Assembly (NCBI GenBank): GCA_965267345.1
Contig: OZ253947.1
Span: 398,665-462,664, forward strand
DNA: 64,000 bases
Direction of reading: 5' to 3'
From: Minisyncoccota bacterium
GTDB lineage: Bacteria; Patescibacteriota; Minisyncoccia; Phycocordibacterales; UBA2100
Positions 341-50,168 of this stretch are shown here, piece by piece (the stretch's first letter is position 1; each line of letters opens with the position of its first letter). Both the position numbers and the translations under genes were made by a program. The notes beneath the pieces are model-generated. The model had not been told where the DNA came from. It made no database searches and saw only the letters and a program-made list of their open reading frames with translations.

Positions 341-676
341 CTATGTCGCGCTCAAAAGCGTCTGCTGTAAAATCGTAATAATGCCCCACACGCTTGCCAT
401 AACAAATAAAATGGCAATGCCCCACACCAGTGTCTCTTGAAGTCGCTGCTGTTTTTCCGCGTCACCCTTTTGGGATGCCCACAGGCTTCCCACCACATTC
501 CAGAAAAATATCAGCATGGCAACGCCCACGAGCAGCAATACGCCGTCGTTAATCAGATCAACAATATAGTATGCAAGGTCGGCAAACGTACGCGGCGCGG
601 CAAGCGCCACGTGCGCCGGTATCGCAAGCGCGAGTAGCCCCGTAATTACTCCGTGTGCTGTTGCGCGTGCGTACAT
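341..676 (-). CDS. VirB2/TrbC-like small membrane protein, paralog 2
   Basis: Signal peptide, then two TM helices separated by a short charged loop (SQKGDAEKQQ). The FFW motif is shared with paralog 1. Confidence 0.55.
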   Translation of the reverse strand: MYARATAHGVITGLLALAIPAHVALAAPRTFADLAYYIVDLINDGVLLLVGVAMLIFFWNVVGSLWASQKGDAEKQQRLQETLVWGIAILFVMASVWGIITILQQTLLSAT

Positions 677-16728: not shown

Positions 16729-16803
16729 CTGGTGCGCGATGCAAGAATTGAACTTGCGACCTCTTCGATGTCAACGAAGCGCTCTACCACTGAGCTAATC
16801 GCG
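16729..16803 (-). tRNA. tRNA-Val (anticodon GAC), CCA encoded
   Basis: Cloverleaf GCGCGAT.TA.GCTCAGTGGTAGAGC..CTTCG TTGACAT CGAAG..GGTCGCAAGTTCAATTCTTGC ATCGCGC A CCA. Confidence 0.88.
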
Positions 16804-16841
16804 CATGCGAGGGCGTATAGTAGCGTGACCCTTCCCCTACT

Positions 16842-23009: not shown

Positions 23010-23084
23010 TGGTGACCCTACGGGGAATCGAACCCCGATTTCCACCGTGAAAGGGTGGCGTCCTAGCCGTTAGACGATAGGGCC
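23010..23084 (-). tRNA. tRNA-Glu (anticodon TTC), CCA encoded
   Basis: Revcomp GGCCCTA TC GTCTAACGGCTAGGAC GCCACC CTTTCAC GGTGG AAATC GGGGTTCGATTCCCC GTAGGGTC ACCA. Confidence 0.88.
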
Positions 23085-23150: not shown

Positions 23151-23234
23151 GGAGGGTTGCCCGGAATTGGTAACGGACCGCACTCGAAATGCGGCGCGCG
23201 CAAGCGCTTGTGGGTTCGAGTCCCATGCCCTCCG
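23151..23234 (+). tRNA. tRNA-Ser (anticodon CGA), class II with a long variable arm
   Basis: GGAGGGT TG CCCGGAATTGGTAACGGAC CGCA CTCGAAA TGCG, variable arm GCGCGCGCAAGCGCTTG, T-arm TGGGTTCGAGTCCCA, acceptor GCCCTCC G. Closely resembles E. coli serU. Confidence 0.85.
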
Positions 23235-23361
23235 CTCGTTTGTACGTAACTATCTACACGTCCATACCTGCGATTCGAAAAGATGTTTTACTGCACGAGG
23301 ACCGCCCTTACGCAAACCTCTGATACAAGGTCGGTCCTTGTTCTGCTTGCAGGGTGTTTCG

Positions 23362-29170: not shown

Positions 29171-29546
29171 TAGCAGGTAACCGCGCGGTTACTCCGTTGC
29201 AAGCGATGTCATGGTGCGAAACGCAGCAGCAACGTCGCTTGTGTCACCATTGAGCACAGTCTCTTCAAGTTCTTGTGCTCGCGTTGCGTCTAGTGACATA
29301 TCTTTATGTGATGAAAACGATAATTGGAAAAGCATACGCACTCTCGTGTGTGAGATGTTCGTGGCGTATCTCACGAACAATTGCGCGCTCACCCTGCAGG
29401 CAATTATAGCATGTCAGCAGGTTCCATTAGTCCACAGTTTATGACACATGTTTGACGCGTTGTGGAAGCATGTGGCGTTGTGCTCAAAACAGCACGAGCG
29501 AGAAATAGAAAACGTCGAAGCATTGCTCCGACGTCACTATTTCTTG

Positions 29547-29620
29547 TGCTCGGGGGCGGACTCGAACCGCCGACCCTTCGCTCTTCAGGCGAATGCTCTA
29601 GCCAACTGAGCTACCCGAGC
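29547..29620 (-). tRNA. tRNA-Phe (anticodon GAA)
   Basis: Revcomp GCTCGGG TA GCTCAGTTGGCTAGAGC ATTCGC CTGAAGA GCGAA G GGTC GGCGGTTCGAGTCCGCC CCCGAGC A. Confidence 0.88.
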
Positions 29621-30512: not shown

Positions 30513-30700
30513 TATCAGCTCACTACGCATTTTTATGTCTTCGGCACGCTCAGACTTAAAAATACCAAGTGGCTCCTATCCGGACTCGCCGACCCAGCCC
30601 TTCTCGAAGGGCTGGGTGCCCCGGGTCCGTCTTTCGCCTCAACCGACGACGTGTTGCTCATGGCAGCAGATGCGTCGCATCTTCTGCGTGAGCATACAAG

Positions 30701-30772
30701 TGTCCTCGGTAGGAGTCGAACCTACATTTGCCCCTTAGGAGGGGGCCGTTCTGTCCGTTGAACTACGAGGAC
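30701..30772 (-). tRNA. tRNA-Arg (anticodon CCT)
   Basis: Revcomp GTCCTCG TA GTTCAACGGACAGAAC G GCCCC CTCCTAA GGGGC AAAT GTAGGTTCGACTCCTAC CGAGGAC A. Confidence 0.85.
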
Positions 30773-30838: not shown

Positions 30839-31078
30839 CTACATCTCAAGGAGTGAGCGAATGCGTCCCTCATCGAAACCAATGACCATGTCGTCACCGA
30901 TGAAGATGACAGGAACGCCCATCTGGCCGCTGCGCGTTACCATTTCTTGCGCCTTTTCCTGATCTTCAGCGACGTTGTGTTCAGTGTACTCAACGCCATT
31001 TTCGGTGAAGAATTCCTTCGCCTGCTGGCAAAAATGGCACGTTGGGGTGCTGTAAATGACTACTGTTTTATCCGTCAT
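30839..31078 (-). CDS. Glutaredoxin/NrdH-like redoxin
   Basis: 79 aa. CHFC active site in VVIYSTPTCHFCQQAKEF, then GVPVIFIGDDMVIGFDE. Confidence 0.8.
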   Translation of the reverse strand: MTDKTVVIYSTPTCHFCQQAKEFFTENGVEYTEHNVAEDQEKAQEMVTRSGQMGVPVIFIGDDMVIGFDEGRIRSLLEM

Positions 31079-31371
31079 ATATGTTGATTACATATTTCTA
31101 ACGGATACAGTATAGCATGCATTGGAAAGATGCAGCCCCGAAAGCGGGCATCAGCTCACTAATTCGCTTACGCTCATAAGTGGCTCCTGCCCAGGCTCGT
31201 CTTCCTCGCTCCATGTACGTCGCTCGGATATGACTCCGCCGCTCGAATCGTCGCGTTGCTCCGATATATTCGCTCTTTTCGATTCCCCACGAAAGCCAAG
31301 TAGTTGGCTTTCTCATCTCCGAGCACGCACATAAAAATACCATTGCACGCAGCGGCATTTTTATGGCGTTG

Positions 31372-31442
31372 TGCGGGATGCGAGAATCGAACTCGCGACT
31401 TAAGCTTGGGAAGCTTACGTTATGCCACTTAACTAATCCCGC
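31372..31442 (-). tRNA. tRNA-Gly (anticodon CCC)
   Basis: Revcomp GCGGGAT TA GTTAAGTGGCATAAC G TAAGC TTCCCAA GCTTA AGTC GCGAGTTCGATTCTCGC ATCCCGC A. Confidence 0.85.
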
Positions 31443-31454
31443 GTGCGCTCTATG

Positions 31455-31838
31455 TTACTCGTCGAAACCAAAAAAGGAAATAACGCGCTGCCACAGGCTT
31501 TGTGATGTCTCCCGTGCCGCTGCTTCCTGTTCCGGTGCATCAACAAGAATAATGAGATGTTCGCCGTCCCGCCCGACGTCAAAACTGTGGCGAATTTCTT
31601 CTTCAAGACCGCGCTCCGTCTCCAGCCGCTGCATCTCGGTGCGCAATGATGATGCGCGCTGCTCGAGCTCGTTGAGCTCCTGCTCAGCCTGCAGGCGATT
31701 TTCTTTGGCAAACCGCGCCTTTTGGTAGACACCCCACGTGCCGCGTACAAACACCACAACCAAAACGAGCAGGAGGAGGAGGCTGATTTTTGAAAAGAGA
31801 ATACGGCGCAGTCGCTGCTTATCAGATACCCCAAGCAT
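31455..31838 (-). CDS. Septum formation initiator (FtsB/DivIC-like)
   Basis: Single N-terminal TM followed by a leucine-zipper-like coiled coil (LQAEQELNELEQRASSLRTEMQRLETE). Confidence 0.5.
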   Translation of the reverse strand: MLGVSDKQRLRRILFSKISLLLLLVLVVVFVRGTWGVYQKARFAKENRLQAEQELNELEQRASSLRTEMQRLETERGLEEEIRHSFDVGRDGEHLIILVDAPEQEAAARETSQSLWQRVISFFGFDE

Positions 31839-32024
31839 ATGCTAGTATTGTACCCTGATAGTGAATGTTCTGCCGACGCAGCCATTTCGCTACAGGGCAT
31901 AGCACCATGAGTTTCTTATTTGATGAAAAATCTAAAAAAGCGATGAAGTGGGTCTGGATTGTTCTGGGCATCCTCATTATCGCCAGTATGGTTGTTGCGT
32001 ATTCACCAGGGCTCTTCACGTAGC

Positions 32025-33806
32025 CTACTCGGAACGCATCACTTTCATGAATGCCTCGTGCGGGATGTGGACTTTCCCGCGCTCGAGCGCTTTCTTCTTT
32101 CCCTTCTTTTGCTTCTCGAGCAGCTTTTTCTTACGTGTCACGTCGCCACCGTATAGATACCCCGTCACATCTTTGCGCAGTGCAGATATTTTTTCACTGG
32201 CAATAATGCGCCCAGACGCCCGTGCCTGAATTTTGACTACAAAGAGCTGTCGTGGAAGCACGTCTTTAAGCTTCCCAACCATGTCACGGGCCTCTTCTTC
32301 GACGCGTCGGCGCGACACAATACGGCTAAATGCCGGTGCAAGCTCTTCGGCAACAAGTATATCGAGCCGTGTCACATCAGCATCACGCATACCCAATGGC
32401 TCATACGACAGCGACCCGAAGCCCGATGAAGCATTTTTAAGTTTATCGAAAAAGTTGCGCATCATCTCACGCAGCGGCATTTCTGCCACCAGCTTTGTGC
32501 GCCCGTCGGGCATGGTCTCGGTTTTCGTCACGGTTGCTTCATGCTCATGTAGTAGCTGCATGCTGCTCCCCAGATACGCGGCCGGTACAATGATGGTTGC
32601 TTCGATCCACTGCTCACGTATGTTCGTTGCCTCCCCGTCATGCGGAAACTGTGTTGGCGTGTACACGTTACGCGTGGTGCCATTTTTCCACGTCACTTCG
32701 TAGACCGTTGTCGGTAACGTCACAATCAGGTCAATATCAAATTCGCGACGAAGGCGTTCGGTAATGATCTCCATGTGCAGCATACCGAGGAAGCCGCAGC
32801 GAAACCCGCGCCCCATCACACCACTCGCCTCTTCCTCATACGAGAGCGACGAATCAACAAGACGCAGCCGCTCGAGCGCTTGACGCAGCAGCGGGAGATC
32901 ATCCTGACTCTCAGGGTACACGCTCGCCCAGATCACCGGATGTGGCTCGCGATAGCCGGAGAGCGCAGGTGTTGCGGCACGCGCTGCAACAACCGTATCA
33001 CCGACATTTACAATTCCCGGTTTTTTAATACCCGTGACAATGTAGCCAATCTCGCCGGCACTGAGCTTTTCCCGTGACTCTTCGGTCGGGTTGAAAATAC
33101 CGGTTTCGAGCGCAGTAAACTGCTCTTGTGCAATCGCAAAACGCAGTTTCTCGCCCTGTGCAATACGGCCGCCGACAACACGCACAAACAAAACGATGCC
33201 GCGATGATCGGAGTATTTAAAGTCAAATATGAGCCCGCGCTGGTCAGCGCCTTCCTCAATTGGTGCCGGCACATCGCGCACAATCCGCTCGAGCAACTCA
33301 GGAACGCCAGCACCCGTCTTTCCGGACGTGGCAATAATATCGTGCTCATCAATGTCGAGTAACAACGAGAGCTCAGCACGAATGTCGTCGACGCGTGCCA
33401 GTGGTGAGTCAACCTTCGACAAAACGGGAATAACGACAAGTCCTTGCTCGCGTGCCAATTGTAGTACCGACAGTGTCTGTGCCTGCACACCCTGTGTCGC
33501 ATCTACGAGCAACACAACACCTTCAACGGCAGACAACGCGCGCGATACTTCGTACGCAAAATCAATATGTCCGGGGGTATCAATGAGATTGATGATGTAT
33601 CGCTCGCCACCCGATGTCCACTCCATGCGCACCGGCTGCATTTTTATGGTAATCCCTCGCTCCCGCTCAAGATCCATCTGGTCAAGCACCTGATCGCGCA
33701 TCTTGCGCTCAGGAATCGTGCCGGTGACCTCGAGCATGCGGTCAGCCAACGTCGATTTACCGTGATCGATGTGGGCAATAATGCTGAAATTTCGTATCTG
33801 TTCCAT
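32025..33806 (-). CDS. lepA: Elongation factor 4 (LepA)
   Basis: G-domain motifs AHIDHGKST, DTPGHIDF and the unique LepA C-terminal domain. 593 aa. Confidence 0.95.
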   Translation of the reverse strand: MEQIRNFSIIAHIDHGKSTLADRMLEVTGTIPERKMRDQVLDQMDLERERGITIKMQPVRMEWTSGGERYIINLIDTPGHIDFAYEVSRALSAVEGVVLLVDATQGVQAQTLSVLQLAREQGLVVIPVLSKVDSPLARVDDIRAELSLLLDIDEHDIIATSGKTGAGVPELLERIVRDVPAPIEEGADQRGLIFDFKYSDHRGIVLFVRVVGGRIAQGEKLRFAIAQEQFTALETGIFNPTEESREKLSAGEIGYIVTGIKKPGIVNVGDTVVAARAATPALSGYREPHPVIWASVYPESQDDLPLLRQALERLRLVDSSLSYEEEASGVMGRGFRCGFLGMLHMEIITERLRREFDIDLIVTLPTTVYEVTWKNGTTRNVYTPTQFPHDGEATNIREQWIEATIIVPAAYLGSSMQLLHEHEATVTKTETMPDGRTKLVAEMPLREMMRNFFDKLKNASSGFGSLSYEPLGMRDADVTRLDILVAEELAPAFSRIVSRRRVEEEARDMVGKLKDVLPRQLFVVKIQARASGRIIASEKISALRKDVTGYLYGGDVTRKKKLLEKQKKGKKKALERGKVHIPHEAFMKVMRSE

Positions 33807-33851
33807 ACCGTTACTCCAAAGATGTCTTAGCTGCGGCGCACGTCCGTGGCG

Positions 33852-35534
33852 CTATACATCTGTACCACGTTCCGTGCCACTTGAGAAGATTGGGACGTAC
33901 TTCCAGAAGCGATTTCCCACGGCGCGACGCACTTCGCGTAATTCACTGTTCCCCAGTAGTGCGAGCACGCACACGCCCGCACCGATACCAACGGTGCCTG
34001 CAGTAAACCCTTGCAGGAAAATGCCGACAAACGTGTCGATATCAACAAGTCGCGCCATCCATTGGAGTACTTCGTGTGCCGCAAAGCCGGCAACAATGGC
34101 TGCGGAGAAACTTTCGAAAAATGCCCGTTCAATACGGCCTGCAATAGCAGTAAAGTCACGACGGAAGAGCCACAAGAAGATGCCTGCATTGATCAGCGCA
34201 AAGAGTGCGAAGGCTAACGGCAGCATGAGCACCTCAGTGCCCGGCAAGCCACTAACACGCAACATATCTTCGATGAAATAACGGAAAAACGGCTCTGTGC
34301 GAAACGCATGTACTAACGCCAGTGCACTCACAATGACACCAATGGCCGTCCCGATGTTTACAATGAGCGGCTTCCACGTACGGCCGGCAGCGTAGTAGCC
34401 ACGGACGAATAACAATGTGAGTGACTGGGCAACAAGCGACACCGCAAACAACGCGAGTGCTGCAGCGGTCAGGCGTGTCGCTGTCCAGTCAAATGCACCG
34501 CCACCGAGCACCACACGCACAATCTGTGCCCGCAACACAATAGTCAGCACGATCAGTGGAATCGACCAGAAAATAATGTGTCGCGCCGCGGCGATCATCT
34601 GCTCAGAAAATTGCGTCACTTTGCCGTGTGAGAAAAATCGCGCGAGCGTGGGAAATGCCGCCACGGAGTAGCTGGCACCGATAATAGCAAGCGGCGCTGA
34701 CTGCAGGTTAAAGGCAAGTGAGAACACCGATACTGATCCTGCACCCATTGTTGCGGCAAACGCAACCAGCGCAAACAGTACAAAGTGATTTGCCGTCAGT
34801 GAAATGGCGCGCGGTACAGATACGGCAGTGATCTGCCAAAGCTCGCGCATATGAATTTTAAACGATGAAAGACGCAGGTACCCAGTGCGCATCACGAATG
34901 GCACCTGTATCGCGACATGGAGAAATGCACCAATGACCACACCATAGGTGATACCCACAACACCATAGTGCGGGTAGAGTGCGACAATACCGAAGATGAT
35001 GGAAAGGTTGTAGAGTAATGGCGCAAGTGCGTACAATAGAAAGCGCCCGTGTGCCTGTGTCACACTCGCCAAGATTCCGGAGAGTCCAAGGAGCATCGGC
35101 TGCGCGAGCAATACGCGACTGAGTGTGATCAACAGTCCATCTTCAAGTGCAACGAGTGTCGGAAAGAAATGAGCTAAAAGCGCGGGAAGTGCAAACCACA
35201 GGACGCCGCTCACCAGCAGTATCAGTACGCTAAAACCCGCAACAACATTGCCGACAATGTCATACCGCTCTTGCGCCGCGTCAATCCGCGTCAGCAGTGG
35301 TACGAGAATAAAGACTGAAACCAGTGATGCAAGTGAGACGTAGACGACGTCAGGAATACGAAACGCAGCGTAGTAGATATCGAGTAAATTGCCGGCACCA
35401 AAAAGTGACGCAAGTAGCCGATCGCGCACGAGTGCAAGCAAGGTTGAGAGCAACGTGAAAAATCCCAAAAGATACGCGGCTTCGTGTAAGCCGCGCGTCT
35501 CCCCCTCCATAAACCGCAAAATACGTCGCATCAT
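33852..35534 (-). CDS. murJ: Lipid II flippase MurJ (MviN)
   Basis: 560 aa, about 14 TM helices. The N-terminal region LLGFFTLLSTLLALVRDRLLASLFGAG matches MurJ. Confidence 0.8.
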   Translation of the reverse strand: MMRRILRFMEGETRGLHEAAYLLGFFTLLSTLLALVRDRLLASLFGAGNLLDIYYAAFRIPDVVYVSLASLVSVFILVPLLTRIDAAQERYDIVGNVVAGFSVLILLVSGVLWFALPALLAHFFPTLVALEDGLLITLSRVLLAQPMLLGLSGILASVTQAHGRFLLYALAPLLYNLSIIFGIVALYPHYGVVGITYGVVIGAFLHVAIQVPFVMRTGYLRLSSFKIHMRELWQITAVSVPRAISLTANHFVLFALVAFAATMGAGSVSVFSLAFNLQSAPLAIIGASYSVAAFPTLARFFSHGKVTQFSEQMIAAARHIIFWSIPLIVLTIVLRAQIVRVVLGGGAFDWTATRLTAAALALFAVSLVAQSLTLLFVRGYYAAGRTWKPLIVNIGTAIGVIVSALALVHAFRTEPFFRYFIEDMLRVSGLPGTEVLMLPLAFALFALINAGIFLWLFRRDFTAIAGRIERAFFESFSAAIVAGFAAHEVLQWMARLVDIDTFVGIFLQGFTAGTVGIGAGVCVLALLGNSELREVRRAVGNRFWKYVPIFSSGTERGTDV

Positions 35535-35550
35535 CGTAGCCTAGCACGGA

Positions 35551-37917
35551 TTAGGATTCCTCAGAAACCGGCAGCTCATCGCGCTCAATCGGCGCTTCCT
35601 CTGCCTCTTCAAAGACACTAAAGGCTGATTCGCCCGCACGCAGTGCTTCGATAATCTGCTGCACTTCTACGTTATCAGGATTCAGTGCGCCGACACGTTC
35701 AAATGCTGCCTGCGCTCCTGCTGCATTTCCGAGTCGATCGTATGAGAGTCCGAGGAAGTACAGTGCATTTGCGTAATCTTCATTAATGCGCACTGCTTCC
35801 TCAAGTGCCTGCGCTGCGCTTTCATATTGTCCGTCGCTGTAGTAGAGCAAGCCGAGCTGGAACAGGAGTCCTGCATTGTCAGGACGCAGGAGTACTGCCG
35901 ATTCGGTCGATCGAATTGCCTCAGTGGTATTGCCTGCCTGAATTTCAATCTGCGAGAGAATAAAGAACGCGTCAGTGTAGTTTGATTTCAATGCCAGTGT
36001 GCGATCGATGTGCTCCCGTGCCAGATCAAGATTTTCTTGTTCCAGTGCAAGGCGTGCAAGGCTCACCGGAATCACCGGTGTGGTCGGGTTGCGCCGCTGA
36101 GCCTCTTCGTACGTAGTGACTGCATTTTCGTATGCGCCCTCCACACCCAACGGAACCAACTGCGCGTAAATATCAGCAAGCAATAGCCAGTGATTGTAGT
36201 TTCCCGATTCAGTATTTGCCGCAGCCTGCGCGGAGCGAATCGTTGCACTTAATTGTGTCTGAAACTCCTGACGCTGTGCAGCAACATCGTCGTCCTGTCG
36301 ATTAAGTATCTCAGAGAGCCGCGCAACGCCAACGTTTGCTTTCAGTTGCTCACTACGTGTTCCGTTACCCAACAGCGTTGCTCGATCAGCGACCGCCACC
36401 GCACGCGCGAAGTCACCTGTATTAGCGATGGCAACTGCACGATTGAGCGTCGCATTTGCGTACACGCGCTCAGCCTCAATAAGAATTGCACTGACAGACA
36501 GCACGCCGACAATTAGTACGCCAAAGGTGAGCGCGACACCATGCGCGTAACCGGCATGCGCCGTGAGTTCGCGAGTGCGTACGACACCACTGGCAGCAGC
36601 AATACCAACTGCAGCACCTGTCAGAATAAACGCACTCGCGAGCACAACGATTTGCGGCACGTAGAAAATCGCCAGTACCCACAGATACGCCGCCGCGCTG
36701 TATGACGATACGGCAATGAGCATGTGCTCACGCTGCAGTGGTCGGTGCACAAGAATTCGAAAACCGAGTACAAGAAATGCCACGAAGAATACAATGAGTG
36801 CCGCACCGACGATAATGCCGCCCGTCACAAAGAGCGTCGGAATCAGACCGATACCGAAGCCGAAATCAACGTTCCAGAATGCCGTTTCGTTGACGACGAG
36901 CGGTTTATGGATGACCCATGCGCGCGAGAATAAGTTCGGCCCAGCTCCCGCAATCCAATTGTCTTGGTAAACAGCATTTCCGACATCAATCGTTGCTTGC
37001 CACGACGGGCGTACATCAAGATACGCAATGTCAAACGTGGCAATGATGCGTTCACCGAGTGTCGTTCCCGCAACGAGAAACAACACTGCAATAAGGGCCA
37101 CAATACCGCCTGAGAGCAATCGCCGTGCGGGAAATGTATGTGCGTAGACACCACTTTCCTGAGAGTATGATGCATCTACCACTGCGTACACCATGAGCAG
37201 AAGCGTGAAGGCAAGCAGCGCACCCCATGCCGCCGCAAGATTTACGAATACCAACGCACCAAGTGCCAACACGAGTACGCTGTAAAGAAAGACGCGATAC
37301 AGTCGCGTAGTACCGACGAGCATGAGATTACTCAGTGCAAGGAGTGCTGCCAAACCGCCAAATACCGCCATGTCATTCCAACTTCCCAGCAGCGTCGCGG
37401 TCACTGTATCTGAAAATATGCTCCCGAATACCCCATCAACGCCGAACAGAATACGGGCAACGTGGAAAAGCCCGAAGAGGAAGAATGAACCCAGTATCGT
37501 CTGCTGGAGGCGTACAACTTGCAGTGGTGTACGCGCTACAAGCGCGACGGTTGCCAGTGCACTAACGCAGACAAAGAGTGCCAGTGTGGTATCACGCTCA
37601 AATCCAAACCCAATGAGTGAACGGATAACAGCATCTGAGAGAAGCGCAGCGATTAGGTGCGCGCCAACGAGACCAATGGCAGACCACAACAGTATCGTAC
37701 TGGGAAATGTGACGCGGTGTTCATTGAGCCGTGCAACTGCCCAAAGCGTGAGCGATGTCATAACGCCAAGGGTGAGTACTCCTAGCTTCGTTAACTGCAA
37801 CACCACAAGGTCTGTCGGTACAAAAACAATCGGCAATGCGAACACGGTCGCCAGTAAAATAAAAAATGCAATGCTATCAAGACGATGTGCGATTCTCATA
37901 GACACACAAAAGCGCAA
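35551..37917 (-). CDS. O-antigen ligase (Wzy_C)-like polytopic membrane protein with a C-terminal TPR-repeat domain
   Basis: More than 10 TM helices in the N-terminal 500 aa. Five or more TPR motifs in the C-terminal 250 aa. Confidence 0.5.
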   Translation of the reverse strand: MRFCVSMRIAHRLDSIAFFILLATVFALPIVFVPTDLVVLQLTKLGVLTLGVMTSLTLWAVARLNEHRVTFPSTILLWSAIGLVGAHLIAALLSDAVIRSLIGFGFERDTTLALFVCVSALATVALVARTPLQVVRLQQTILGSFFLFGLFHVARILFGVDGVFGSIFSDTVTATLLGSWNDMAVFGGLAALLALSNLMLVGTTRLYRVFLYSVLVLALGALVFVNLAAAWGALLAFTLLLMVYAVVDASYSQESGVYAHTFPARRLLSGGIVALIAVLFLVAGTTLGERIIATFDIAYLDVRPSWQATIDVGNAVYQDNWIAGAGPNLFSRAWVIHKPLVVNETAFWNVDFGFGIGLIPTLFVTGGIIVGAALIVFFVAFLVLGFRILVHRPLQREHMLIAVSSYSAAAYLWVLAIFYVPQIVVLASAFILTGAAVGIAAASGVVRTRELTAHAGYAHGVALTFGVLIVGVLSVSAILIEAERVYANATLNRAVAIANTGDFARAVAVADRATLLGNGTRSEQLKANVGVARLSEILNRQDDDVAAQRQEFQTQLSATIRSAQAAANTESGNYNHWLLLADIYAQLVPLGVEGAYENAVTTYEEAQRRNPTTPVIPVSLARLALEQENLDLAREHIDRTLALKSNYTDAFFILSQIEIQAGNTTEAIRSTESAVLLRPDNAGLLFQLGLLYYSDGQYESAAQALEEAVRINEDYANALYFLGLSYDRLGNAAGAQAAFERVGALNPDNVEVQQIIEALRAGESAFSVFEEAEEAPIERDELPVSEES

Positions 37918-37995
37918 TACGCTTTCACATTAATTGATGTAGTAATGGATACAGTATAGCAAGCTTCTCCCGCGCCACGCCATGGGTACAGTGCA

Positions 37996-38025
37996 AAAAC
38001 CCGCTGCGGTATGCAGCGGGTTTTT
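37996..38025. terminator. Stem-loop flanked by A5/T5, the terminator for rnpB
   Basis: aaaaa cccgctgc ggtat gcagcggg ttttt, directly 3' of rnpB on the minus strand. Confidence 0.7.
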
Positions 38026-38406
38026 GACCTGTGTGCCGTCCGTGTCTGTAAGCCGAATTCTGTCCTTGCTGCGCGTGCACCAGAGCGCGGCAATGTGCAA
38101 TCATTTATCTGGGACGTACGTTACCGTACGCCTCGTGCGGCACCCACTCGCGCAAAGCGCGAGAGTACGACCTTGCACGCAGGTAGGAATTTTGCCGTTT
38201 CACCCTTGCCTTGCGACAAGATTATTCCCGAAGGGAATCCGTAGCATCTCTGCTGTGGCGTCACTGTTCGCATCCCTATCCAGCCCACATGTTTGTAGGC
38301 TGGGCGACGGGCGTTACCCGCTACCCTGCTGCCCCGCACGAATGCGAGGCGCGTGTTCGGACTTTCCTCCCCCATGTTGCCATAGAGGCAATTGCCCAAC
38401 ACGGAC
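38026..38406 (-). ncRNA. rnpB: RNase P RNA (bacterial type A, M1 RNA homolog)
   Basis: Minus strand carries GGAGGAAAGTCCG (P4) at 38358-38368, GGTAACGCC, CAGTGACGCCACAGCAGAGATGC, GCAAGGGTGAAACGG, CAGATAAATGA and ACAGAATTCGGCTTACAGAC, co-linear with E. coli M1 RNA. A P1 helix joins 38399-38406 to 38038-38045. Length is about 375 nt. The ends are approximate: the 3' end may lie near 38030. Confidence 0.88.
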
Positions 38407-38412
38407 CCGCGT

Positions 38413-38440
38413 ATTATACAATGCAATACGTTTTTGTAAA
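38413..38440 (-). promoter_or_regulatory. Sigma-70-type promoter for rnpB: TTTACA-16 nt-TATAAT
   Basis: -35 at 38435-38440 and -10 at 38413-38418 on the minus strand. The predicted TSS at about 38406 coincides with the 5' strand of P1. Confidence 0.6.
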
Positions 38441-38527
38441 TAACCCCCATGCTGCACGCAAAAACCCGAGAGTCACACCCTCGAGTTTTTGTACGCACTA
38501 CTTAGAACTCTACGCTGTGAGTGAAGT

Positions 38528-40909
38528 CTATATTTCTATTTCGCAGACTCCCCCTGCACACGCGAGTTCGCGCTTCACATCAGTTTCGTCGCGCTGCTCA
38601 TACGTGAGTAATTTCGCGTAGTCGATGTTTTGCACGGTTTTGAGCATACGCTCATACGCCGCCTTATCAATTGGCTCGTACGGCGCCAGTCGGTATACGT
38701 GGTCGAATCGCGGCAAGAATGAAAGACCACCGACGATATCCCAGTTTTCATACACCCAGTTGGCAACTTGAATCCACTCATCGTTACCGACGGATACCGT
38801 CACCGATGGGTTGTGCTCAGTGTAGTTGAGCTTCACGTCTTTCCAGTGCTCGAGCTGATCGAGTGCGGTGAGGTCGTCTTTGAGGATCGCCCCGTCCGGT
38901 GCCTTAACGGGGAATTCGAGTACAAACGTGTTGGCATTTTCCATCGTCTGCCCTACTTCCGGATGATACGGCACACCTTGATCGCGTACGAGTTTAAAGA
39001 GCGAGTCAGTTGCCGAGATGCGGATGCGACGAATGTAGTACTGCGAGTGACGCGGGTGCATACCTGATGCACAATCGAATGTCTGTGAGACAGTACCTGA
39101 TGGCTTAACACAGGTTGTTGCACTCGACTGCTGAATACCAAGGCGTTTCGCGTACTTTTTATTTGTCTTATTTACTTCCTCTTTCAACTTTTTCAACACG
39201 CTTGGCTTGCGCACCATGTCGGAATCCCACTGCCCCGTCAGCGAGACACCAAGGAGTCGCTCGCTTTCGCAGTTCTTCTTCCACTCATCTGAGAGGTAAT
39301 TGAAGTTCGTCAGCGATGATTGGTACGTACCAAGAATGGTGGCAATGCGTGCTTTGCGCAGCAGTGTTTTTTCGCTATCGCCTCGGCGCGCGATAACTTC
39401 TGAGAGGTTACAGAATTGCTTCGACTGTAGAATGATTTCGCCACACGGATTAGTACCGAGGTTACCGATCTCACCTGCCCATTCAATATCCTTATACTTT
39501 TTCTTGAGGAGGTTAACACGACGCTCAGGAAGCGTATCGATGAGGTTGCCACGATTGAAGATGCCGCGCTCACCGGTTCCACTCTTCATCAGTGCGACCC
39601 ACTCATCCATGAAGGCCTCAGTGTCGGGACGCTCTTCATACACTGCTGAGTTATTTGAGATTGAGCGGTGCGGGTCAGTCATGTAGAACTGGCCTTTCTT
39701 CGCGTCACGCATTGCGTCGTCATCCAAATCAGACAGACTAATCATCGCGCTACGGCGCACGCCGCCGGCAACCACACACTCTCCAATTTTACAGATGATA
39801 TCGTGTGCATCGATATTACGCAGACGACGCCCTTGTCGGTCAAGAATACGCTCACGCGCAAATTGCATGAGGCTTCGGAGTGGCTCAGGACCCGAGCTTT
39901 TACCGCCCATTGTTTTGAGTCGCGCACCGGCCGGTCGAATCTTTGAGTAGTCGAAGTGGATGTCTTTGCCGTTGTACCACGTCTTCAAACCAAGTGTCAG
40001 TGCATCACACCACCCTTCCTTCGAGTCGCCGACAACGTGCGTTTTTACCGTCTCGCCCGTTTGCTTTTTAATTTGCGGTAACTGCTGAATGTTCTGACTC
40101 TCCACGGCAAATCCCACACCTGTACCACACATGGACAAGTACATAATTTCTGCAAAGTCCTCAATTTGTGTTGGCGCAATGAATGAACAGTTGTACGCCG
40201 CAACGTTACAACGACGCGCTGCGTGGCCGGCAAACTGCATCAAACGCATTGACGGCATCACTTCCTGTTTGAGAATTGCTTCACGCACCTCGGCGTACTC
40301 CTTGTCAGTGAGCTTTTTTCCGAGATTCTCGCGCATGAAATTGATGTAGCGATCTACCGTTTCAATCCATGTCTCGCGCCTATTTTCTTCCGGAATCCAT
40401 CGTGCATACGTGCGCAAATACACAAATTCACCAAGCGGGTTCTCTTTGAAGTACTTCTTACTCTCCTCGGTGAGCTTGCGTACGTGCTCAGGCACCTGCA
40501 CACCGTCGTCGAGCCGTCGTTTTGCGCGCTCGGCGCGGTAGAGGATGTACGCTTTTGCGGTGTCAACGTAGTCAGAGAGAATCAGTTGACGCTCCACTTC
40601 GTCTTGTGTCCCCTCAACCGTGGGAAGAAAGTCTTTGTGCTTGCGCGCAGTGCGCACCAAATCGCTCACGACGCGGTGTGCCACCATCGTCGCCTCTTCA
40701 GAAGAGCCCTCCCCCGTTACCGCCATCGCTTTGGTGATGGCCCGCTCAATTTTTTCAAAGTCGAACGGTACAATACGCCCATCGCGCTTGCGTACTTTCG
40801 GAACAAATTTGTTGTATCGCCCCTGCTGCGTTGCGGTTAATGATGAGCCTGAGCTCTTTTTAGAGCGAGTCGTCTTTTCGCTCTTCATGGATGAAGATTT
40901 CTTAGTCAT
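38528..40909 (-). CDS. nrdJ: Adenosylcobalamin-dependent (class II) ribonucleotide reductase
   Basis: 793 aa. Carries RNR class II features, including the active-site region NLSEVIARRGDS..CGEIIL...NPCGEI and a C-terminal thiol pair. N-terminal ATP-cone-like region. Confidence 0.82.
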   Translation of the reverse strand: MTKKSSSMKSEKTTRSKKSSGSSLTATQQGRYNKFVPKVRKRDGRIVPFDFEKIERAITKAMAVTGEGSSEEATMVAHRVVSDLVRTARKHKDFLPTVEGTQDEVERQLILSDYVDTAKAYILYRAERAKRRLDDGVQVPEHVRKLTEESKKYFKENPLGEFVYLRTYARWIPEENRRETWIETVDRYINFMRENLGKKLTDKEYAEVREAILKQEVMPSMRLMQFAGHAARRCNVAAYNCSFIAPTQIEDFAEIMYLSMCGTGVGFAVESQNIQQLPQIKKQTGETVKTHVVGDSKEGWCDALTLGLKTWYNGKDIHFDYSKIRPAGARLKTMGGKSSGPEPLRSLMQFARERILDRQGRRLRNIDAHDIICKIGECVVAGGVRRSAMISLSDLDDDAMRDAKKGQFYMTDPHRSISNNSAVYEERPDTEAFMDEWVALMKSGTGERGIFNRGNLIDTLPERRVNLLKKKYKDIEWAGEIGNLGTNPCGEIILQSKQFCNLSEVIARRGDSEKTLLRKARIATILGTYQSSLTNFNYLSDEWKKNCESERLLGVSLTGQWDSDMVRKPSVLKKLKEEVNKTNKKYAKRLGIQQSSATTCVKPSGTVSQTFDCASGMHPRHSQYYIRRIRISATDSLFKLVRDQGVPYHPEVGQTMENANTFVLEFPVKAPDGAILKDDLTALDQLEHWKDVKLNYTEHNPSVTVSVGNDEWIQVANWVYENWDIVGGLSFLPRFDHVYRLAPYEPIDKAAYERMLKTVQNIDYAKLLTYEQRDETDVKRELACAGGVCEIEI

Positions 40910-41045
40910 GCGCGCACATTATGTTAGTTGCTAAGCGTCGTTCAAGTAACCTTTTTCATTCTACAACTTTGCACGCCGACCCGAGCATCTCTTTCTGTGG
41001 AAAACAGACGAAAATGCGCAATAAGCTACATCCAAGCGCGTGTGT

Positions 41046-41543
41046 CTAGAGTCCGAGGCGGTCGAGACCCTCGACACGATCACCGATATCGATGTTGTAC
41101 ACCTCCGAAAAGCCCCCCACGACCTCCAAAATGTAGGTCGCGTCAGCGTCGGGCTCGAACACATCCGGATATGACTCAGGTTGTGCATTCTTCCATGCAT
41201 CAACAATCACACCCTGCTCGTTGAGCCAGTACACATCAAGTGGGAAGCGCATACCGCGCATCCAAATGGCGTAGCGTCCCGCCGCTTCAAAGACAAACAA
41301 TAGTCCCTGATCCGGCGGTAGTGTCGCCCGACCGGACAGACCTTGGACACGCTCTGCCTCACTGTCGGCAATTTCAACTCGGAGCGGTGTGCCATCGATC
41401 GTGATGGTATGCAGTCCCGTGAGTCCCGACACACCGCCGTTAGTAGTACTATCGCCGCCGAGGAACCCCAGAGAAAAGAGCCCGACGAGCCCTGCAATCA
41501 GGATAACGACACTAATGAGTATTGGCTTGTCAGCGTCGTACAT
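41046..41543 (-). CDS. DUF192-domain protein (COG1430), membrane-anchored
   Basis: N-terminal TM, then LRVEIADSEAERVQGLSGR...GLLFVF...AIWMRGMRFPLDVYWL, typical of DUF192. Confidence 0.6.
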   Translation of the reverse strand: MYDADKPILISVVILIAGLVGLFSLGFLGGDSTTNGGVSGLTGLHTITIDGTPLRVEIADSEAERVQGLSGRATLPPDQGLLFVFEAAGRYAIWMRGMRFPLDVYWLNEQGVIVDAWKNAQPESYPDVFEPDADATYILEVVGGFSEVYNIDIGDRVEGLDRLGL

Positions 41544-41590
41544 GCGCTCTTAGTATAGCAAAAGTGTCACTCGTCGTGCACAATACGCAC

Positions 41591-42301
41591 ATGGATACCA
41601 TTACCTACCCCGTACGCATTAATCGCTACCTATATCAAAAGAAGATTTGCTCGCGACGCGAAGCTGACCGCCTCATCGAGGCCGGAAAGGTATTCGTGAA
41701 CGGCACACCGGCAGTACTCGGTCAGCAGGTGCACGAGGGCGACACCGTCACCGTGTCTGGCGATGTTACATCGCGACGCTACCGCTACGTGCTGTATCAC
41801 AAACCGCGCGGCATCGTGAGCCATAACCCGCAGCGCGACGAAAAAAGTATTCATGACGTGGTACAGCTCAATGCGCGCATGGTACCCATTGGTCGCCTCG
41901 ACAAGGAGTCACGCGGATTAATGCTCCTCTCTGATGACGGCCGTATCGTACACACACTTTTGAGTCCCGAATATGAACACGAGCGCACGTATGACGTCAC
42001 TGTCGACAAATACGTCAAAGAGCAGGCGCTCAAACGCCTCGCCCGCGGCGTATCTATCGAAGGGTACGTGACCAAGCCGGCACAGGTCACACGCATTGAT
42101 GATACGCGATTTCGCCTGACACTCACCGAAGGAAAAAAGCATCAAGTTCGCCGTATGTGTGCAGCCCTTGGCTACACGGTGACCGACTTGCAGCGCGTCA
42201 GCATACTCCATCTGCCACTTGATGTACCTGAGGGAGCACTTCGTGACCTCACACCTGCCGAGGAGGCGGCATTGCTCCGCGCAGCCGGTATTACGACGTA
42301 G
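41591..42301 (+). CDS. Pseudouridine synthase, RsuA/RluB family (S4 domain plus catalytic domain)
   Basis: S4-like N-terminus (RINRYLYQKKICSRREADRLIEAGKVFVNG). Catalytic Asp motif GRLDKESRGLMLLSDDG. I chose the start at MDTITYPV; the ORF begins at 41522. Confidence 0.8.
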   Translation: MDTITYPVRINRYLYQKKICSRREADRLIEAGKVFVNGTPAVLGQQVHEGDTVTVSGDVTSRRYRYVLYHKPRGIVSHNPQRDEKSIHDVVQLNARMVPIGRLDKESRGLMLLSDDGRIVHTLLSPEYEHERTYDVTVDKYVKEQALKRLARGVSIEGYVTKPAQVTRIDDTRFRLTLTEGKKHQVRRMCAALGYTVTDLQRVSILHLPLDVPEGALRDLTPAEEAALLRAAGITT

Positions 42302-42303
42302 CG

Positions 42304-42912
42304 TTACTCGAACGCACTCTGCGGCATAAGCGCGTAGTACCAGAGCGCCACGGCTTCGCGAAATACAAAAAACAGCTCGCGTGAGTACCGCCCCTGCCGA
42401 TACTCGCTTCCCTGCAGCTCATAGTCCCGCACGTCGTAACGCTGCGCGAGCATATGAATGCGCGCTAAGTGAAAGTCATTTGATACGAGCACGTAGGAAC
42501 GGTCGGGAGTGAGATGAGCAAGTGTCTGCTGCGTATTCACACCATGGTAATCAGCTTCGATATCTTCGTCAGCAACGCCGCGCTCTCGTGCGACATCGTA
42601 CATCACGTCCACTTCGTGCCGTCCGTACACTGACGGCGCTCCTGAAAAAATGAGGCACGACACGGCACCCTCTTCGTATATATCAACCGCTTCATGGACA
42701 CGGTCAGAGAGTGCGTGCGAAGCAACACCACCGGGCCAGACTGCAGCGCCAAATACAACGGCACACGTATGTGCGCCAGATGCCTGTGCGTCGTAAAACG
42801 AGACGATATACAAAATGGTGCCGCCGATAGTAAATACACACAGGCTAATGACACCGATGAGGTATGTTCCGATTTTTTTCACGCGAGTGTTCAGTGTAGC
42901 ACTCTCACGCAC
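42304..42912 (-). CDS. DUF218/YdcF-like (SanA/ElyC family) membrane-anchored protein
   Basis: N-terminal TM. AVVFGAAVWPGGVASHALSDRVHEAV...LIFSG matches the DUF218 core. Confidence 0.55.
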   Translation of the reverse strand: MRESATLNTRVKKIGTYLIGVISLCVFTIGGTILYIVSFYDAQASGAHTCAVVFGAAVWPGGVASHALSDRVHEAVDIYEEGAVSCLIFSGAPSVYGRHEVDVMYDVARERGVADEDIEADYHGVNTQQTLAHLTPDRSYVLVSNDFHLARIHMLAQRYDVRDYELQGSEYRQGRYSRELFFVFREAVALWYYALMPQSAFE

Positions 42913-43499
42913 TACCGACGAGAGGTGTCGTCAGCGGCACGCTCGGCAACACGCGCAAGCATGCGATTCCGCGACACGTCGTCCCGTCGTTTAAACATCT
43001 CCGAGAAAATATCAAATGAGAGCAAATCAATGCCACAAAATCCGAGTACACCGTGTTTCCAGCGCTGCGCTGCGGCAAAACGGAAGAGAAAATAGACCCA
43101 CCACGCCCCGTCGGCTGTCGCAAAGATGCGTGCGACACGACCTTCAAGCAATTCGTGGCGCAATCCGCCCTTTTCGTACTTGTACGCAAATCCTGACGAA
43201 AAGTTTTGATCGAGAAAGTTTTTTAAAATTGCGGGCGGTCCGAACCACCAAATAGGAAAGACAAACACAACTTCCTGTGCCCATAATATTTTTTCCTGAA
43301 TCAGTTTGTGTGTCGCATTTGGCTCGCAGTCAGTCTTTATGTTTTCGAAAGCAAGAAATGGTTGTGCGTACTTCTTTTTGTACAAGTCCATTATGAAGAC
43401 CGTATCCCCGCACTTCTCTTTCTCCTGCTTATAGCGATTCGCAATTTTGTGCGTAAAGCCATATGAAGCGGGGTGAGCCGTCACAATGAGCACGTTCAT
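42912..43499 (-). CDS. Flavodoxin-like fold NAD(P)H-dependent oxidoreductase (NQO/MdaB/KefF-like)
   Basis: MNVLIVTAHPASYGFTHKIANRY...VVFVFPIWWFGPPAILKNFLD, the Flavodoxin_2 signature. Confidence 0.65.
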   Translation of the reverse strand: MNVLIVTAHPASYGFTHKIANRYKQEKEKCGDTVFIMDLYKKKYAQPFLAFENIKTDCEPNATHKLIQEKILWAQEVVFVFPIWWFGPPAILKNFLDQNFSSGFAYKYEKGGLRHELLEGRVARIFATADGAWWVYFLFRFAAAQRWKHGVLGFCGIDLLSFDIFSEMFKRRDDVSRNRMLARVAERAADDTSRR

Positions 43500-43553
43500 G
43501 CATGTATTGTACGGCGGATCGCACCGTCATGCGAAACGCGTATGTGGACGAAG

Positions 43554-44738
43554 CTAAAAACGTTCCAGCTCGATGCGTGCAAACATGTCACGTGTGAGTG
43601 CATTGCTGTCGTATGCACGCTCCGCGGCGTGCACATCAGCAAGATACGCACTGGTAGCCGGCTTGCGTGGCATAAAAAGTGTGCAGGTATCATCATGCCG
43701 CTGGAGTGAAATATCATGCGTTCCAATGTGCTTCGCGCGCGCAATGATTTCATTTTTATGCATACCTGCGAGCGGACGCAGTACCGGAAGTGAGGTTGCG
43801 TCTTCAATAGCGCCAATATTTTCAAGTGTTTGCGATGCGACCTGCCCCACCGACTCACCCGTTATGAGTGCGGCGGCACCGTGTGCCTGTGCCCACTTTT
43901 CCGCCACACGCATCATGGCTCGTCGGTACAGAATCACCCGCAGTTTTTCCGGTGCTGCAAAGGCAATAGCTTTTTGCGCTTCAAGAAACGGCACCATGGC
44001 AAGCGTCAGCGGACCGCACGACGTGCGCAACACATTCGCTATGCTGCGCACCTTCTCGCGCGCCGCATCGGAAGTCTGTGGGTATGCGTGAAAATGCATA
44101 AGCATCGGTGTGACGCCACGTGTCGCACACATCCACGCCGCCACCGGCGAATCGAATCCTCCCGACAGAAGTGCGACACCCGCACCAACTGACCCGACCG
44201 GCAGCCCCGATACACCGCGGTGTTTTGCGTAGAGATGCACCTCGTTATGAAAAACGTCAACGCACAGGGTGAGGTCTGAGTTGGTGAGCTGCACGCGTGC
44301 ACTGTCGCCTAGACTCAGACGCACTGCCTCCCCAAGGGCTACTTCAATATCGTGTGATGTATGCGGAAATGCTTTATCGAGCCGGCGGGCCGTAACGCGA
44401 AATGTCGTAAATGTGCCCGCAAGCTCCTGTGCATATGCCGCTGCCTGCTCCTCCATCTGCTCAAGTGTCGGCTGCACGCGATAGCCAATGCCATACACGG
44501 CGACACCCGGCGTGTGTGCAAGCACATCAGCAACTGCCGTCCGCATATCGTCCGGCCACGGAGTGGGCGCATCGTGGGGCCGAATCGTAATACGTCCCCA
44601 GCGATTCTCGACGGTCATCGGATACCCACGGAATGAGAGGTTTTCCGCAATGGCGCGTGCCAGTGCGCGCTCAAACCGGTCACGATTCGCGCCCTTCAGT
44701 GCAATGTCGTCGTAGTGTACGATGCCAATCATTTCCAT
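43554..44738 (-). CDS. thiI: tRNA 4-thiouridine synthase ThiI
   Basis: THUMP-like N-terminus. PP-loop ALLSGGFDSPVAAW. 394 aa. Confidence 0.8.
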   Translation of the reverse strand: MEMIGIVHYDDIALKGANRDRFERALARAIAENLSFRGYPMTVENRWGRITIRPHDAPTPWPDDMRTAVADVLAHTPGVAVYGIGYRVQPTLEQMEEQAAAYAQELAGTFTTFRVTARRLDKAFPHTSHDIEVALGEAVRLSLGDSARVQLTNSDLTLCVDVFHNEVHLYAKHRGVSGLPVGSVGAGVALLSGGFDSPVAAWMCATRGVTPMLMHFHAYPQTSDAAREKVRSIANVLRTSCGPLTLAMVPFLEAQKAIAFAAPEKLRVILYRRAMMRVAEKWAQAHGAAALITGESVGQVASQTLENIGAIEDATSLPVLRPLAGMHKNEIIARAKHIGTHDISLQRHDDTCTLFMPRKPATSAYLADVHAAERAYDSNALTRDMFARIELERF

Positions 44739-49904: not shown

Positions 49905-49989
49905 GGAGGAGTGGCCGAGTGGTTTAAGGCGCACGCCTGGAACGCGTGTTGGGGGCAACCCCTCGGAGGTTCGAATCCTCTCTCCTCCG
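49905..49989 (+). tRNA. tRNA-Ser (anticodon GGA), class II with a long variable arm
   Basis: GGAGGAG TG GCCGAGTGGTTTAAGGC GCACGC CTGGAAC GCGTG, variable arm TTGGGGGCAACCCCTC, T-arm GGAGGTTCGAATCCTCT, acceptor CTCCTCC G. Confidence 0.82.
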
Positions 49990-50168
49990 CATATGCAAAT
50001 AGGATGGCTTTTTAGGCCACCTATTTTGGATACTCATGCAGAAGGAAGCGGAGCTTCCGAAGGGATTCGAAAAGAGCGAGTATATCGGAGTGTAGCGACG
50101 ATTCGAGCGGCGGGGTCGCGTCGCTTAGTATTTTAAGGAACGACAGTGATGTAAAATACTTAGCAGAG

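Follow-up and report, generated by a model that had tools for sequence, protein, structure and literature searches.

Among the described types of bacterial ribonuclease P (RNase P) RNA, helix P5.1 is confined to type B and P13/P14 to bacterial type A, P10.1 and P15.1 occur in types B and C, and P19 is found occasionally in types A and B (PMC2858038, Table 3). In the catalytic domain, the contact between L5.1 and L15.1 is a hallmark of type B and the P6 pseudoknot a hallmark of type A (PMC5066622). For the candidate phyla radiation (CPR, or Patescibacteria), the available text of Lui, Nielsen and Arkin (2021; PMC8172020) reports that 10 of 35 circularized genomes had no detectable RNase P RNA until the thresholds of Rfam model RF00010 were lowered. 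According to the same text, many CPR RNase P RNAs are without P13, P14, P16, and P17, and the CCA-binding motif is missing from 23 of the 35. Here, we describe the RNase P RNA gene (rnpB) found on the minus strand of a 64,000-nucleotide (nt) stretch of contig OZ253947.1 (GenBank assembly GCA_965267345.1; hereafter, the window) and compare its fold with those of the known types.

An rnpB gene just below the annotation threshold

The locus at 38407..38033 (minus strand) almost certainly encodes the bacterial RNase P RNA of a Patescibacteria genome and is present as a single copy within the window. A permissive Rfam scan (E ≤ 10) of a 700-nt region matched RF00010 (bacterial RNase P class A) over its full length (model positions 1 to 367) at 97.3 bits and E = 2.1e-30, a value that places homology to RNase P RNA beyond doubt. 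RF00010 ranked above the remaining models of its clan, with type A first, and two piece models (R1 and R2) located exactly one rnpB copy in the 64 kb. This agrees with an earlier sequence-only reading of the same DNA, which had placed an RNase P RNA gene on the minus strand and proposed the RF00010 search as a check; the search succeeds with an E-value threshold only, given that the curated gathering score is 100 bits. The conserved blocks cited in that reading (GGAGGAAAGTCCG, GGTAACGCC, AAGGGTGAAA, CAGATAAATGA, and ACAGAATTCGGCTTA) are indeed co-linear with Escherichia coli rnpB, and closure of the molecule by P1 at about 375 nt is borne out by the length of the match. Helices are numbered after E. 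coli rnpB (b3123, M1 RNA); blastn of the window RNA against all complete E. coli genomes gave no match.

Because 97.3 bits lies under the curated cutoff, the default scan of the whole window is silent on rnpB: at the gathering threshold it reported seven tRNAs and no RNase P RNA. Departures from the textbook type A fold lower the score and leave the gene just below the annotation threshold. rnpB is a familiar and essential housekeeping gene, found here in the reduced and rearranged form that characterizes ultrasmall CPR bacteria, and the element represents no new class.

To collect relatives, we scanned GTDB species genomes for a pattern in which the 5' strand of P4 and the P8 loop lie unusually far apart. 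This yielded at least 120 loci, of which at least 114 held both P4 anchors, and all counts for relatives given below were drawn from this sample. Among the matches listed, the relatives were overwhelmingly Patescibacteria (Parcubacteria/Paceibacteria, Saccharibacteria, Kaiser-, Nomura-, Buchanan-, and Nealsonbacteria, and others), plus at least about 20 Acidobacteriota. The closest among them was L071, from the Patescibacteria metagenome-assembled genome UBA3530, with about 71% nucleotide identity in the RNA and 81% amino acid identity in the neighboring nrdJ. A metagenome scan with a lineage-specific pattern returned only L122, which carries the same RNA as L071; no relative above about 71% identity appeared among the matches listed or in that scan. 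Helices were evaluated with the two piece models, with unfitted MAFFT alignments, and with fixed-offset tests that used offset or reversed-strand controls.

Catalytic domain

In a complete secondary-structure model of the window RNA, every pair is standard (Table 1). P1, P2, and P3 form the closing helices that bound the catalytic domain, as in any bacterial RNase P RNA. The P4 signature is also present, in that GAGGAAAGUCCG, with its bulged U, pairs as a pseudoknot with ACAGAAnnCGGCUUA. P1 and P4, which the sequence-only reading had named as the pairings to verify, thus both form, with nine and eight pairs, respectively. In relatives, all 7 P1 pairs tested formed in 78 of 99 RNAs (33 for the control), a constant geometry that spans 68 distinct sequences and is shared by the window. 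P2 was fully paired (6/6) in 79 of 103 relatives, compared with 20 for the reversed-strand control, and P5 in 63 of 80, compared with 0 to 1 in offset controls, with variants that include CACAG/CUGUG, CACUC/GAGUG, and CACGC/GCGUG. The distal P4 pairs, AA/UU in the window and GG/CC in E. coli, were AA/UU in 58 relatives, GA/UC in 29, AG/CU in 6, GG/CC in 3, and mismatched in 2, so that 96 of 98 were Watson-Crick.

A hairpin between P5 and P7 sits at the position of the type B P5.1 and of the 5' strand of the type A P6. Once 96 RNAs had been realigned by structure, each of the 8 pairs in this P5.1-like helix showed changes on both sides, and its covariation score was 0.573, versus 0.203 for shuffled and ≤0.15 for slid alignments. 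Farther along the molecule, P15, P16, P18, and a P19-like hairpin were together paired in 90.7% of cells (56.8% when shuffled) of an unfitted alignment of 30 RNAs, with a covariation score of 0.878 (0.237 shuffled; ≤0.18 slid). Taken singly, P15 was paired in 100% and P16 in 95.9% of cells, both with double changes; P18 was 95.4% paired, with double changes in 8/8 pairs, and the P19-like helix had them in 9/9 pairs. An alignment-free shuffle test at the family level gave mean z values of -3.05 for the P5.1-like helix, -4.04 for the P19-like helix (n = 84), -2.96 for P16, and -2.46 for the P12 region. For the window alone, the P5.1-like helix and P16 were individually significant (z of about -3.2).

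The P19-like hairpin of the window is predicted from the sequence itself and from positional homology. Its loop (UCUGGUGCAC, 38074-38084) shares the motif CUCUGG with the corresponding loops of L018 (CCUCUGG) and L072 (CCUCUGGUGG), while the stems are unrelated. The motif could be a tertiary-contact or protein-binding site.

Specificity domain

The specificity domain holds two helices in addition to P12. Three consecutive hairpins, a (P12), b ("P12.1"), and c ("P12.2"), precede the GGGUGAAA strand, the type A J12/13 motif. Across 67 RNAs, 19 of 19 pairs in these hairpins showed double changes, 89.4% of cells were paired (55.1% when shuffled), and the covariation score was 0.763 (0.21 shuffled; ≤0.13 slid). 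The outer and inner pairs of hairpin a were paired in 96 to 98% of cells, with double changes, and the middle four in 60%, corresponding to a conserved internal loop. Hairpin b was 97.4% paired, with double changes in all 5 pairs, and is joined to hairpin a by a linker of 0 to 1 nt in the 67 RNAs; hairpin c was 97.7% paired, with double changes in every pair, and was also recovered on an unfitted MAFFT alignment. GNRA loops cap hairpin a in 59 of the 67 RNAs and hairpin c in 47, a hint that both loops may dock elsewhere in the fold.

The order of these elements separates the CPR RNAs from type A. In E. coli and the sampled Acidobacteriota the sequence is P12, GGGUGAAA, P13, P14, and P11', whereas in about 60 CPR RNAs, the window included, it is P12 (a), b, an ARUY linker, c, (G/A)GGUGAAA, and P11'. 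The spacing from GGGUGAAA to GCAAGG is exactly 21 nt in the window and about 50 to 60 CPR RNAs, versus 63 nt in E. coli and 62 nt in Acidobacteriota; a stretch of 21 nt is too short to hold a helix, and P13 and P14 are thus missing. In some relatives, including L018 (Kaiserbacteria; 74.9 bits), Infernal forces hairpins b and c onto P13/P14, which illustrates why Rfam scores fall. Among 18 relatives scored with RF00010, 13 passed the gathering score (100.9 to 142.5 bits) and 5 failed (L010, L014, L018, L020, and L029, all Patescibacteria species genomes).

J11/12 (ACAG...) and J12/13 (GGGUGAAA) flank P12 inside P10/P11, and both strands are near-invariant. By analogy with solved RNase P structures, J11/12 probably contacts the T-loop region of tRNA. 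RNAalifold proposed a local GCG/CGC hairpin across J11/12, which we dropped because its pairs never vary on both sides; the hairpin also conflicts with solved structures, in which J11/12 is a conserved single strand.

The remaining helices are supported to different degrees. RNAalifold, applied to an unfitted MAFFT alignment of 29 specificity domains, recovered P8, P9, P10, and hairpin c with many double changes. For P10, we discarded the register 132-136/218-222 in favor of 132-135/220-223, which covariation supports through compensatory changes in relatives (AU in 24 and GC in 5 at one pair; GC in 22 and AU in 7 at another). P9 of relatives has 4 to 5 bp and a GNRA loop, with 12 to 18 double changes per pair; the 10-bp stem and AACA loop were seen in the window alone and are supported by the window's own sequence and by positional homology. 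Support for P7 comes mainly from the Rfam alignment and one compensatory variant (GAGU/ACUU), the fixed-offset test being weak (29 of 80 fully paired), partly since the spacing differs in Acidobacteriota.

Table 1. Features of the rnpB locus and tRNA genes of the window. RNA position n corresponds to window coordinate 38408 - n.
Feature	RNA positions	Window coordinates	Strand	Remarks
-35-like hexamer TTTACA		38435..38440	-	rnpB promoter
-10 hexamer TATAAT		38413..38418	-	starts 12 nt upstream of first P1 pair
RNase P RNA (rnpB)		38033..38407	-	375 nt
P1	2-10 / 362-370		-	9 bp
P2	13-18 / 306-311		-	6 bp
P3	20-27 / 32-39		-	8 bp, GCAA loop
J3/4 + P4 5' strand, GAGGAAAGUCCGAA		38356..38369	-	bulged U47; pairs with 38050-38057; catalytic core
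P4 (pseudoknot)	44-52 / 351-358		-	8 pairs + bulged U47
P5	53-57 / 228-232		-	pair variant CACGC/GCGUG
P5.1-like hairpin	58-65 / 70-77	38331..38350	-	GCCUCGCA-UUCG-UGCGGGGC; between P5 and P7
P7	82-85 / 224-227		-	Rfam alignment; compensatory variant GAGU/ACUU
P8	87-91 / 97-101		-	intact L8 GGUAACG
P9	105-114 / 119-128	38280..38303	-	10 bp, AACA loop
P10	132-135 / 220-223		-	register backed by covariation
P11	137-139 / 211-214		-	contiguous with P10 (GGGAUGCG)
J11/12, AACAGUGACG		38259..38268	-	near-invariant in 29 aligned relatives
Hairpin a (P12)	150-169	38239..38258	-	GAGA loop, 2x2 internal loop
Hairpin b ("P12.1")	170-184	38224..38238	-	extra helix abutting P12; 5 pairs
Hairpin c ("P12.2")	189-202	38206..38219	-	extra helix, GCAA tetraloop; directly 5' of GGGUGAAA
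GGGUGAAA (type A J12/13 motif)		38198..38205	-	P11' (CGGC) directly after
P15	236-238 / 267-269		-	3 bp; P15-internal loop-P16 spans 38139..38172
P16	245-251 / 255-261		-	capped hairpin, no P17
P18	276-283 / 288-295	38113..38132	-	8 bp, GUAA tetraloop
P19-like hairpin	315-323 / 334-342	38066..38093	-	8 pairs, one C.A mismatch, 10-nt loop; between P2' and P4 3' strand
J2/4 + P4 3' strand, ACAGAAUUCGGCUUA		38049..38063	-	pseudoknot partner
Intrinsic terminator		37995..38025	-	A5, 8-bp G+C-rich stem, 5-nt loop, T5
tRNA genes		16730-16804, 23010-23084, 23151-23235, 29546-29620, 30700-30772, 31371-31442, 49905-49990

Transcription signals and integrity of the gene

Both transcription signals that the sequence-only reading had assigned to the gene are present and are supported by comparison with relatives. 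The promoter, TTTACA-16-TATAAT at 38440..38413, is sigma-70-like and matches 11 of 12 consensus positions; the 900-nt region holds 2 such promoter-like sites versus 0.7 expected. Its position is conserved: of the 44 relatives in which P1 could be placed with confidence, 73% show a TATAAT-like box that begins 9 to 16 nt upstream of P1 (0 to 16% in control windows), with a mode of -12/-13 and a value of -12 in the window. The A5-hairpin-T5 terminator (38025..37995) folds at -26.4 kcal/mol (z = -6.8), and a hairpin with a T run lies 24 to 51 nt past P1 in 66% of relatives versus 14% for a control region (+38 in the window). A simple terminator scan listed neither this terminator nor that of nrdJ (38459-38491); our guess is that the rnpB terminator was missed since an extension of its stem uses up the T tract. 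The two terminators share the symmetric A5-stem-loop-T5 form of bidirectional terminators, and the neighboring genes are all on the same strand.

Based on these signals, rnpB would be transcribed from its own sigma-70-type promoter. With TATAAT 12 nt before P1, transcription would start with the G at 38407/38406, at the mature 5' end or beside it. It would stop at the intrinsic terminator about 40 nt past P1, and the tail would then be trimmed.

Several observations weigh against the identification of a working RNase P RNA gene. The RF00010 score falls 2.7 bits short of the gathering threshold, and the RNA lacks two type A hallmarks, the P6 pseudoknot and P13/P14. In the shuffle test, the P19-like hairpin of the window folds no better than shuffled sequences (z = +0.25), and the P12 region gives a borderline value (z = -1.8, P = 0.06). 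A simple RNR-motif search of the 64-kb window did not find the protein subunit RnpA, the lone match being out of frame and interrupted by stops, and the gene is known here from sequence, with 64 kb of the genome in view. A decaying or nonfunctional rnpB copy, with activity supplied by another rnpB or by the protein-only enzyme (HARP), would account for the low score and the several missing canonical helices; another copy could lie outside the 64 kb visible, and some bacteria are known to have both enzyme types (PMC9945441). However, the same helices are missing clade-wide and not in this copy alone, all conserved core blocks are intact, and all helices pair perfectly in the window RNA. Moreover, the differences from the closest listed relative (about 71% identity) preserve pairing, the promoter, terminator, and synteny are conserved, and the CCA-binding GGU is retained here and lost in most relatives. 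We therefore consider a decaying copy very unlikely and treat the locus as an intact rnpB.

Overlapping reading frames and neighboring genes

Three overlapping open reading frames (ORFs) cover the RNA at 37982-38443 (+), 38121-38498 (-), and 38211-38621 (+), exactly as the sequence-only reading had listed them. One or more of them (153, 125, or 136 amino acids) might be a real gene, with the RNase P-like motifs coincidental, and they are long for an intergenic region. Yet these mutually overlapping ORFs are spread over both strands, none of the five ORFs overlapping the RNA has a Pfam match at E ≤ 1, and the Rfam E-value is 2e-30. Coding also does not predict the compensatory base-pair changes seen in about 15 helices of relatives; because the helices beneath the ORFs are conserved through such changes, selection acts on the RNA and not on a protein. 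A protein-coding origin of this region is thus extremely improbable, and the earlier description of the ORFs as spurious holds.

Upstream of rnpB, the nrdJ-like ORF at 38528..40909 (-) has the ATP-cone, RNR_Alpha, and RNR-II insertion domains of a class II ribonucleotide reductase (Pfam). Given this B12-dependent neighbor, the element might be a cis-regulatory RNA of the reductase, either a cobalamin riboswitch or a structured nrdJ 3' untranslated region. But nrdJ is on the same strand and ends upstream of the RNA, so the gap follows nrdJ and could never be its leader. The nrdJ terminator hairpin (38459-38491, -19.4 kcal/mol) and the rnpB promoter separate the two, and no riboswitch family was found in the Rfam scan at E ≤ 10, consistent with the decision in the sequence-only reading to discard a cobalamin riboswitch. 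Furthermore, among the matches listed, nrdJ adjoins the RNA in just 17 loci, and the RNA of other relatives adjoins different genes. A cis-regulatory role is accordingly so improbable as to be negligible, and we retain the assignment as a separate rnpB transcription unit.

Downstream, the 788-amino-acid ORF at 35551-37917 (-) had been labeled O-antigen-ligase-like, which Pfam does not bear out. Its matches are C-terminal tetratricopeptide repeat (TPR) families only (about residues 590 to 756), and the N-terminal 580 residues have no Pfam match at E ≤ 0.01. A TPR protein lies next to rnpB in at least 35 relatives among the matches listed (30 to 48% identity), as does MurJ in at least 35. The window and L071 (UBA3530) have the order DUF192-nrdJ-rnpB-TPR protein-murJ-lepA in common. 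Continued to the tRNAs and with a large TPR membrane protein (window 31000-44000), this order is conserved in at least about 35 Parcubacteria-type loci as well as in L071/L122, and it could guide the search for rnpB genes under the threshold. Because L071 is nearest in its RNA, nrdJ, and gene order, and because of the pattern of rnpB neighbors across relatives, the window is, judging from its sequence, part of a Patescibacteria chromosome.

Further genes identified with Pfam in the window are gyrA, a class I aminoacyl-tRNA synthetase gene, lepA, murJ, and thiI. This CPR genome also has a complete Gabija anti-phage pair at 18768-22603 (-). GajA (20684-22603, -) is an AAA_15/OLD-type TOPRIM protein of 639 amino acids matched over its full length (PADLOC E = 2.4e-231), GajB (18768-20687, -) is a UvrD helicase of 639 amino acids (E = 2.9e-240), and the two genes overlap by 4 nt.

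CCA-binding motif and proposed function

By homology, the RNA and the small protein RnpA would cleave 5' leaders off pre-tRNAs. The catalytic core (P1-P5, P15, and P18) is held together by the P4 pseudoknot and is joined by a specificity domain of P7-P12, in which the J11/12 and GGGUGAAA module likely reads the T-loop of the substrate. As in type A enzymes, the GGU in the P15/P16 loop is expected to pair with the 3'-CCA of tRNA. The loops of P12 and hairpin c may dock elsewhere in the fold and take over the bracing role of P13/P14.

The window keeps UGGGU, with the GGU at 38142-38144, on the 3' side of the P15/P16 loop, and the GGU is kept in only 2 of 30 aligned relatives. It is retained here even though five of the seven tRNA genes of the window lack an encoded 3'-CCA (Val-GAC and Glu-UUC have it). 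The two sides of the loop change together: among the aligned relatives, CGUA occurs with UGGGU in the window and L059 only, and CGUG occurs with GAGU, AAGU, or GAGC in the 26 to 28 others. This paired change may be a switch between a CCA-reading and a CCA-independent loop.

Comparison with described RNase P RNAs

The window RNA has much in common with type A. The helix order (P1-P5, P7-P12, P15, P16, and P18) and the P4 pseudoknot are the same, as are L8 (GGUAACG), the GNRA-type L18, and the P15/P16 internal loop with GGU, and both RNAs are stand-alone transcription units with a terminator just past P1. Its total length is nearly identical to that of E. coli rnpB (375 versus 377 nt) but is distributed differently. 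From the 5' end to P4 there are 38 nt in the window and 60 nt in E. coli; the corresponding values are 40 and 23 nt from P4 to L8, 103 and 70 nt from L8 to GGGUGAAA, 21 and 63 nt from GGGUGAAA to GCAAGG, 60 and 76 nt from GCAAGG to J18/2, and 38 and 10 nt from J18/2 to the P4 3' strand. The window RNA adds the P5-P7 hairpin, the two hairpins between P12 and GGGUGAAA, and a 28-nt P19-like insert. Its P3 is shorter, and its 10-bp P9 has a non-GNRA loop, which makes a GNRA-type L9-P1 contact impossible. Neither P17 nor the P6 pseudoknot, in which J5/7 pairs with the P17 loop, was found in the window RNA, in a search that did not cover alternative pseudoknots exhaustively; a hairpin occupies the position of J5/7, and the P15-P18 segment is 60 nt long versus 76 nt in E. 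coli. The canonical type A fold P1-P18 that the sequence-only reading expected thus stands for the core helices and fails for P6/P17 and P13/P14, with extra helices added.

Likeness to type B (Bacillus subtilis) is found elsewhere in the molecule. Both have a helix at the P5.1 position, a likeness by position, and a P19; both are without P6, P17, P13, and P14, and in both a J12/13-like motif abuts P11' directly. The window J11/12 strand ACAGUGACG presumably also resembles that of B. subtilis. However, the window RNA has no P10.1, its P10 and P11 being contiguous, and no P15.1, so that an L5.1-L15.1 contact has no partner; besides P16 itself, no helix was found between P15/P16 and P18 in the window or the aligned relatives. 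[quoted passage not shown] Type C (Thermomicrobium; PMC2858038) has likewise lost P13/P14 from an otherwise A-like RNA. It keeps P6, P16, and P17 and gains P10.1 and P15.1 (PMC2858038), and we class the window RNA as its opposite on each point, its P16 hairpin notwithstanding.

Acidobacteriota RNase P RNAs, together with some labeled Verrucomicrobiia and Dormiibacterota (L003, L009, L016, L026, L040, L049, L056, L065, L084, L070, and others), keep the canonical 62-nt P13/P14 segment. They also carry a covarying P5-P7 hairpin, which means that a helix at the P5.1 position is not restricted to CPR bacteria or type B, and inserts at the P19 position of up to 99 nt that are sometimes branched.

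We tentatively suggest that the RNase P RNAs of much of the Patescibacteria could form an architectural type of their own and not a "type A with bits missing," a proposal about which we remain divided. This type would combine a P5.1-position helix that has neither a P15.1 partner nor P6, the loss of P13/P14, and two hairpins 5' of the GGGUGAAA strand, one with a conserved GNRA loop; covariation documents the helices themselves. If the proposal is correct, the hairpins would be a third means of bracing the specificity domain, presumably of independent origin, after the P13/P14 of type A and the P10.1 shared by types B and C. The literature searched contains no formal description of such a type. 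The rearranged periphery of the specificity domain and the P5.1-position helix without P15.1 may deserve formal description as a separate type. At the least, this is a modest case of a ribozyme periphery rebuilt around a fixed core, with the RNase P nature and role unchanged.

That CPR rnpB genes escape default annotation is already known from the available text of PMC8172020. Judging from the 10 of 35 genomes reported there and the 5 of 18 here, between about one-quarter and one-third of related CPR genomes have a subthreshold rnpB. An essential RNA gene can therefore be invisible to default Rfam/Infernal annotation while spurious ORFs cover its locus, and completeness checks and gene calls should use a lowered threshold or a clade-specific model. 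The addition made here is a structural description of the CPR variant, supported by covariation, with accessory specificity-domain hairpins on the other side of the J12/13 strand. P5.1 and P19 are each mentioned 0 times in the available text of PMC8172020, and its RNase P RNA passages, as available, contain no description of a P5-P7 helix or of two hairpins 5' of GGGUGAAA. We found no other papers on CPR RNase P structure, in a search that was thin on subscription journals and is hence weak evidence of novelty.

The RNAs of Lui et al., as described in that available text, come from the same host group, have likewise lost P13, P14, and P17, and pose the same threshold problem; P16 is often missing and the CCA motif mostly lost there, whereas the window RNA has both. 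Set against all of these RNAs, that of the window is a mosaic, with a type A core, P15/P16 loop, and P18, P5.1-position and P19-like helices, and none of P6/P17, P13/P14, P10.1, or P15.1.

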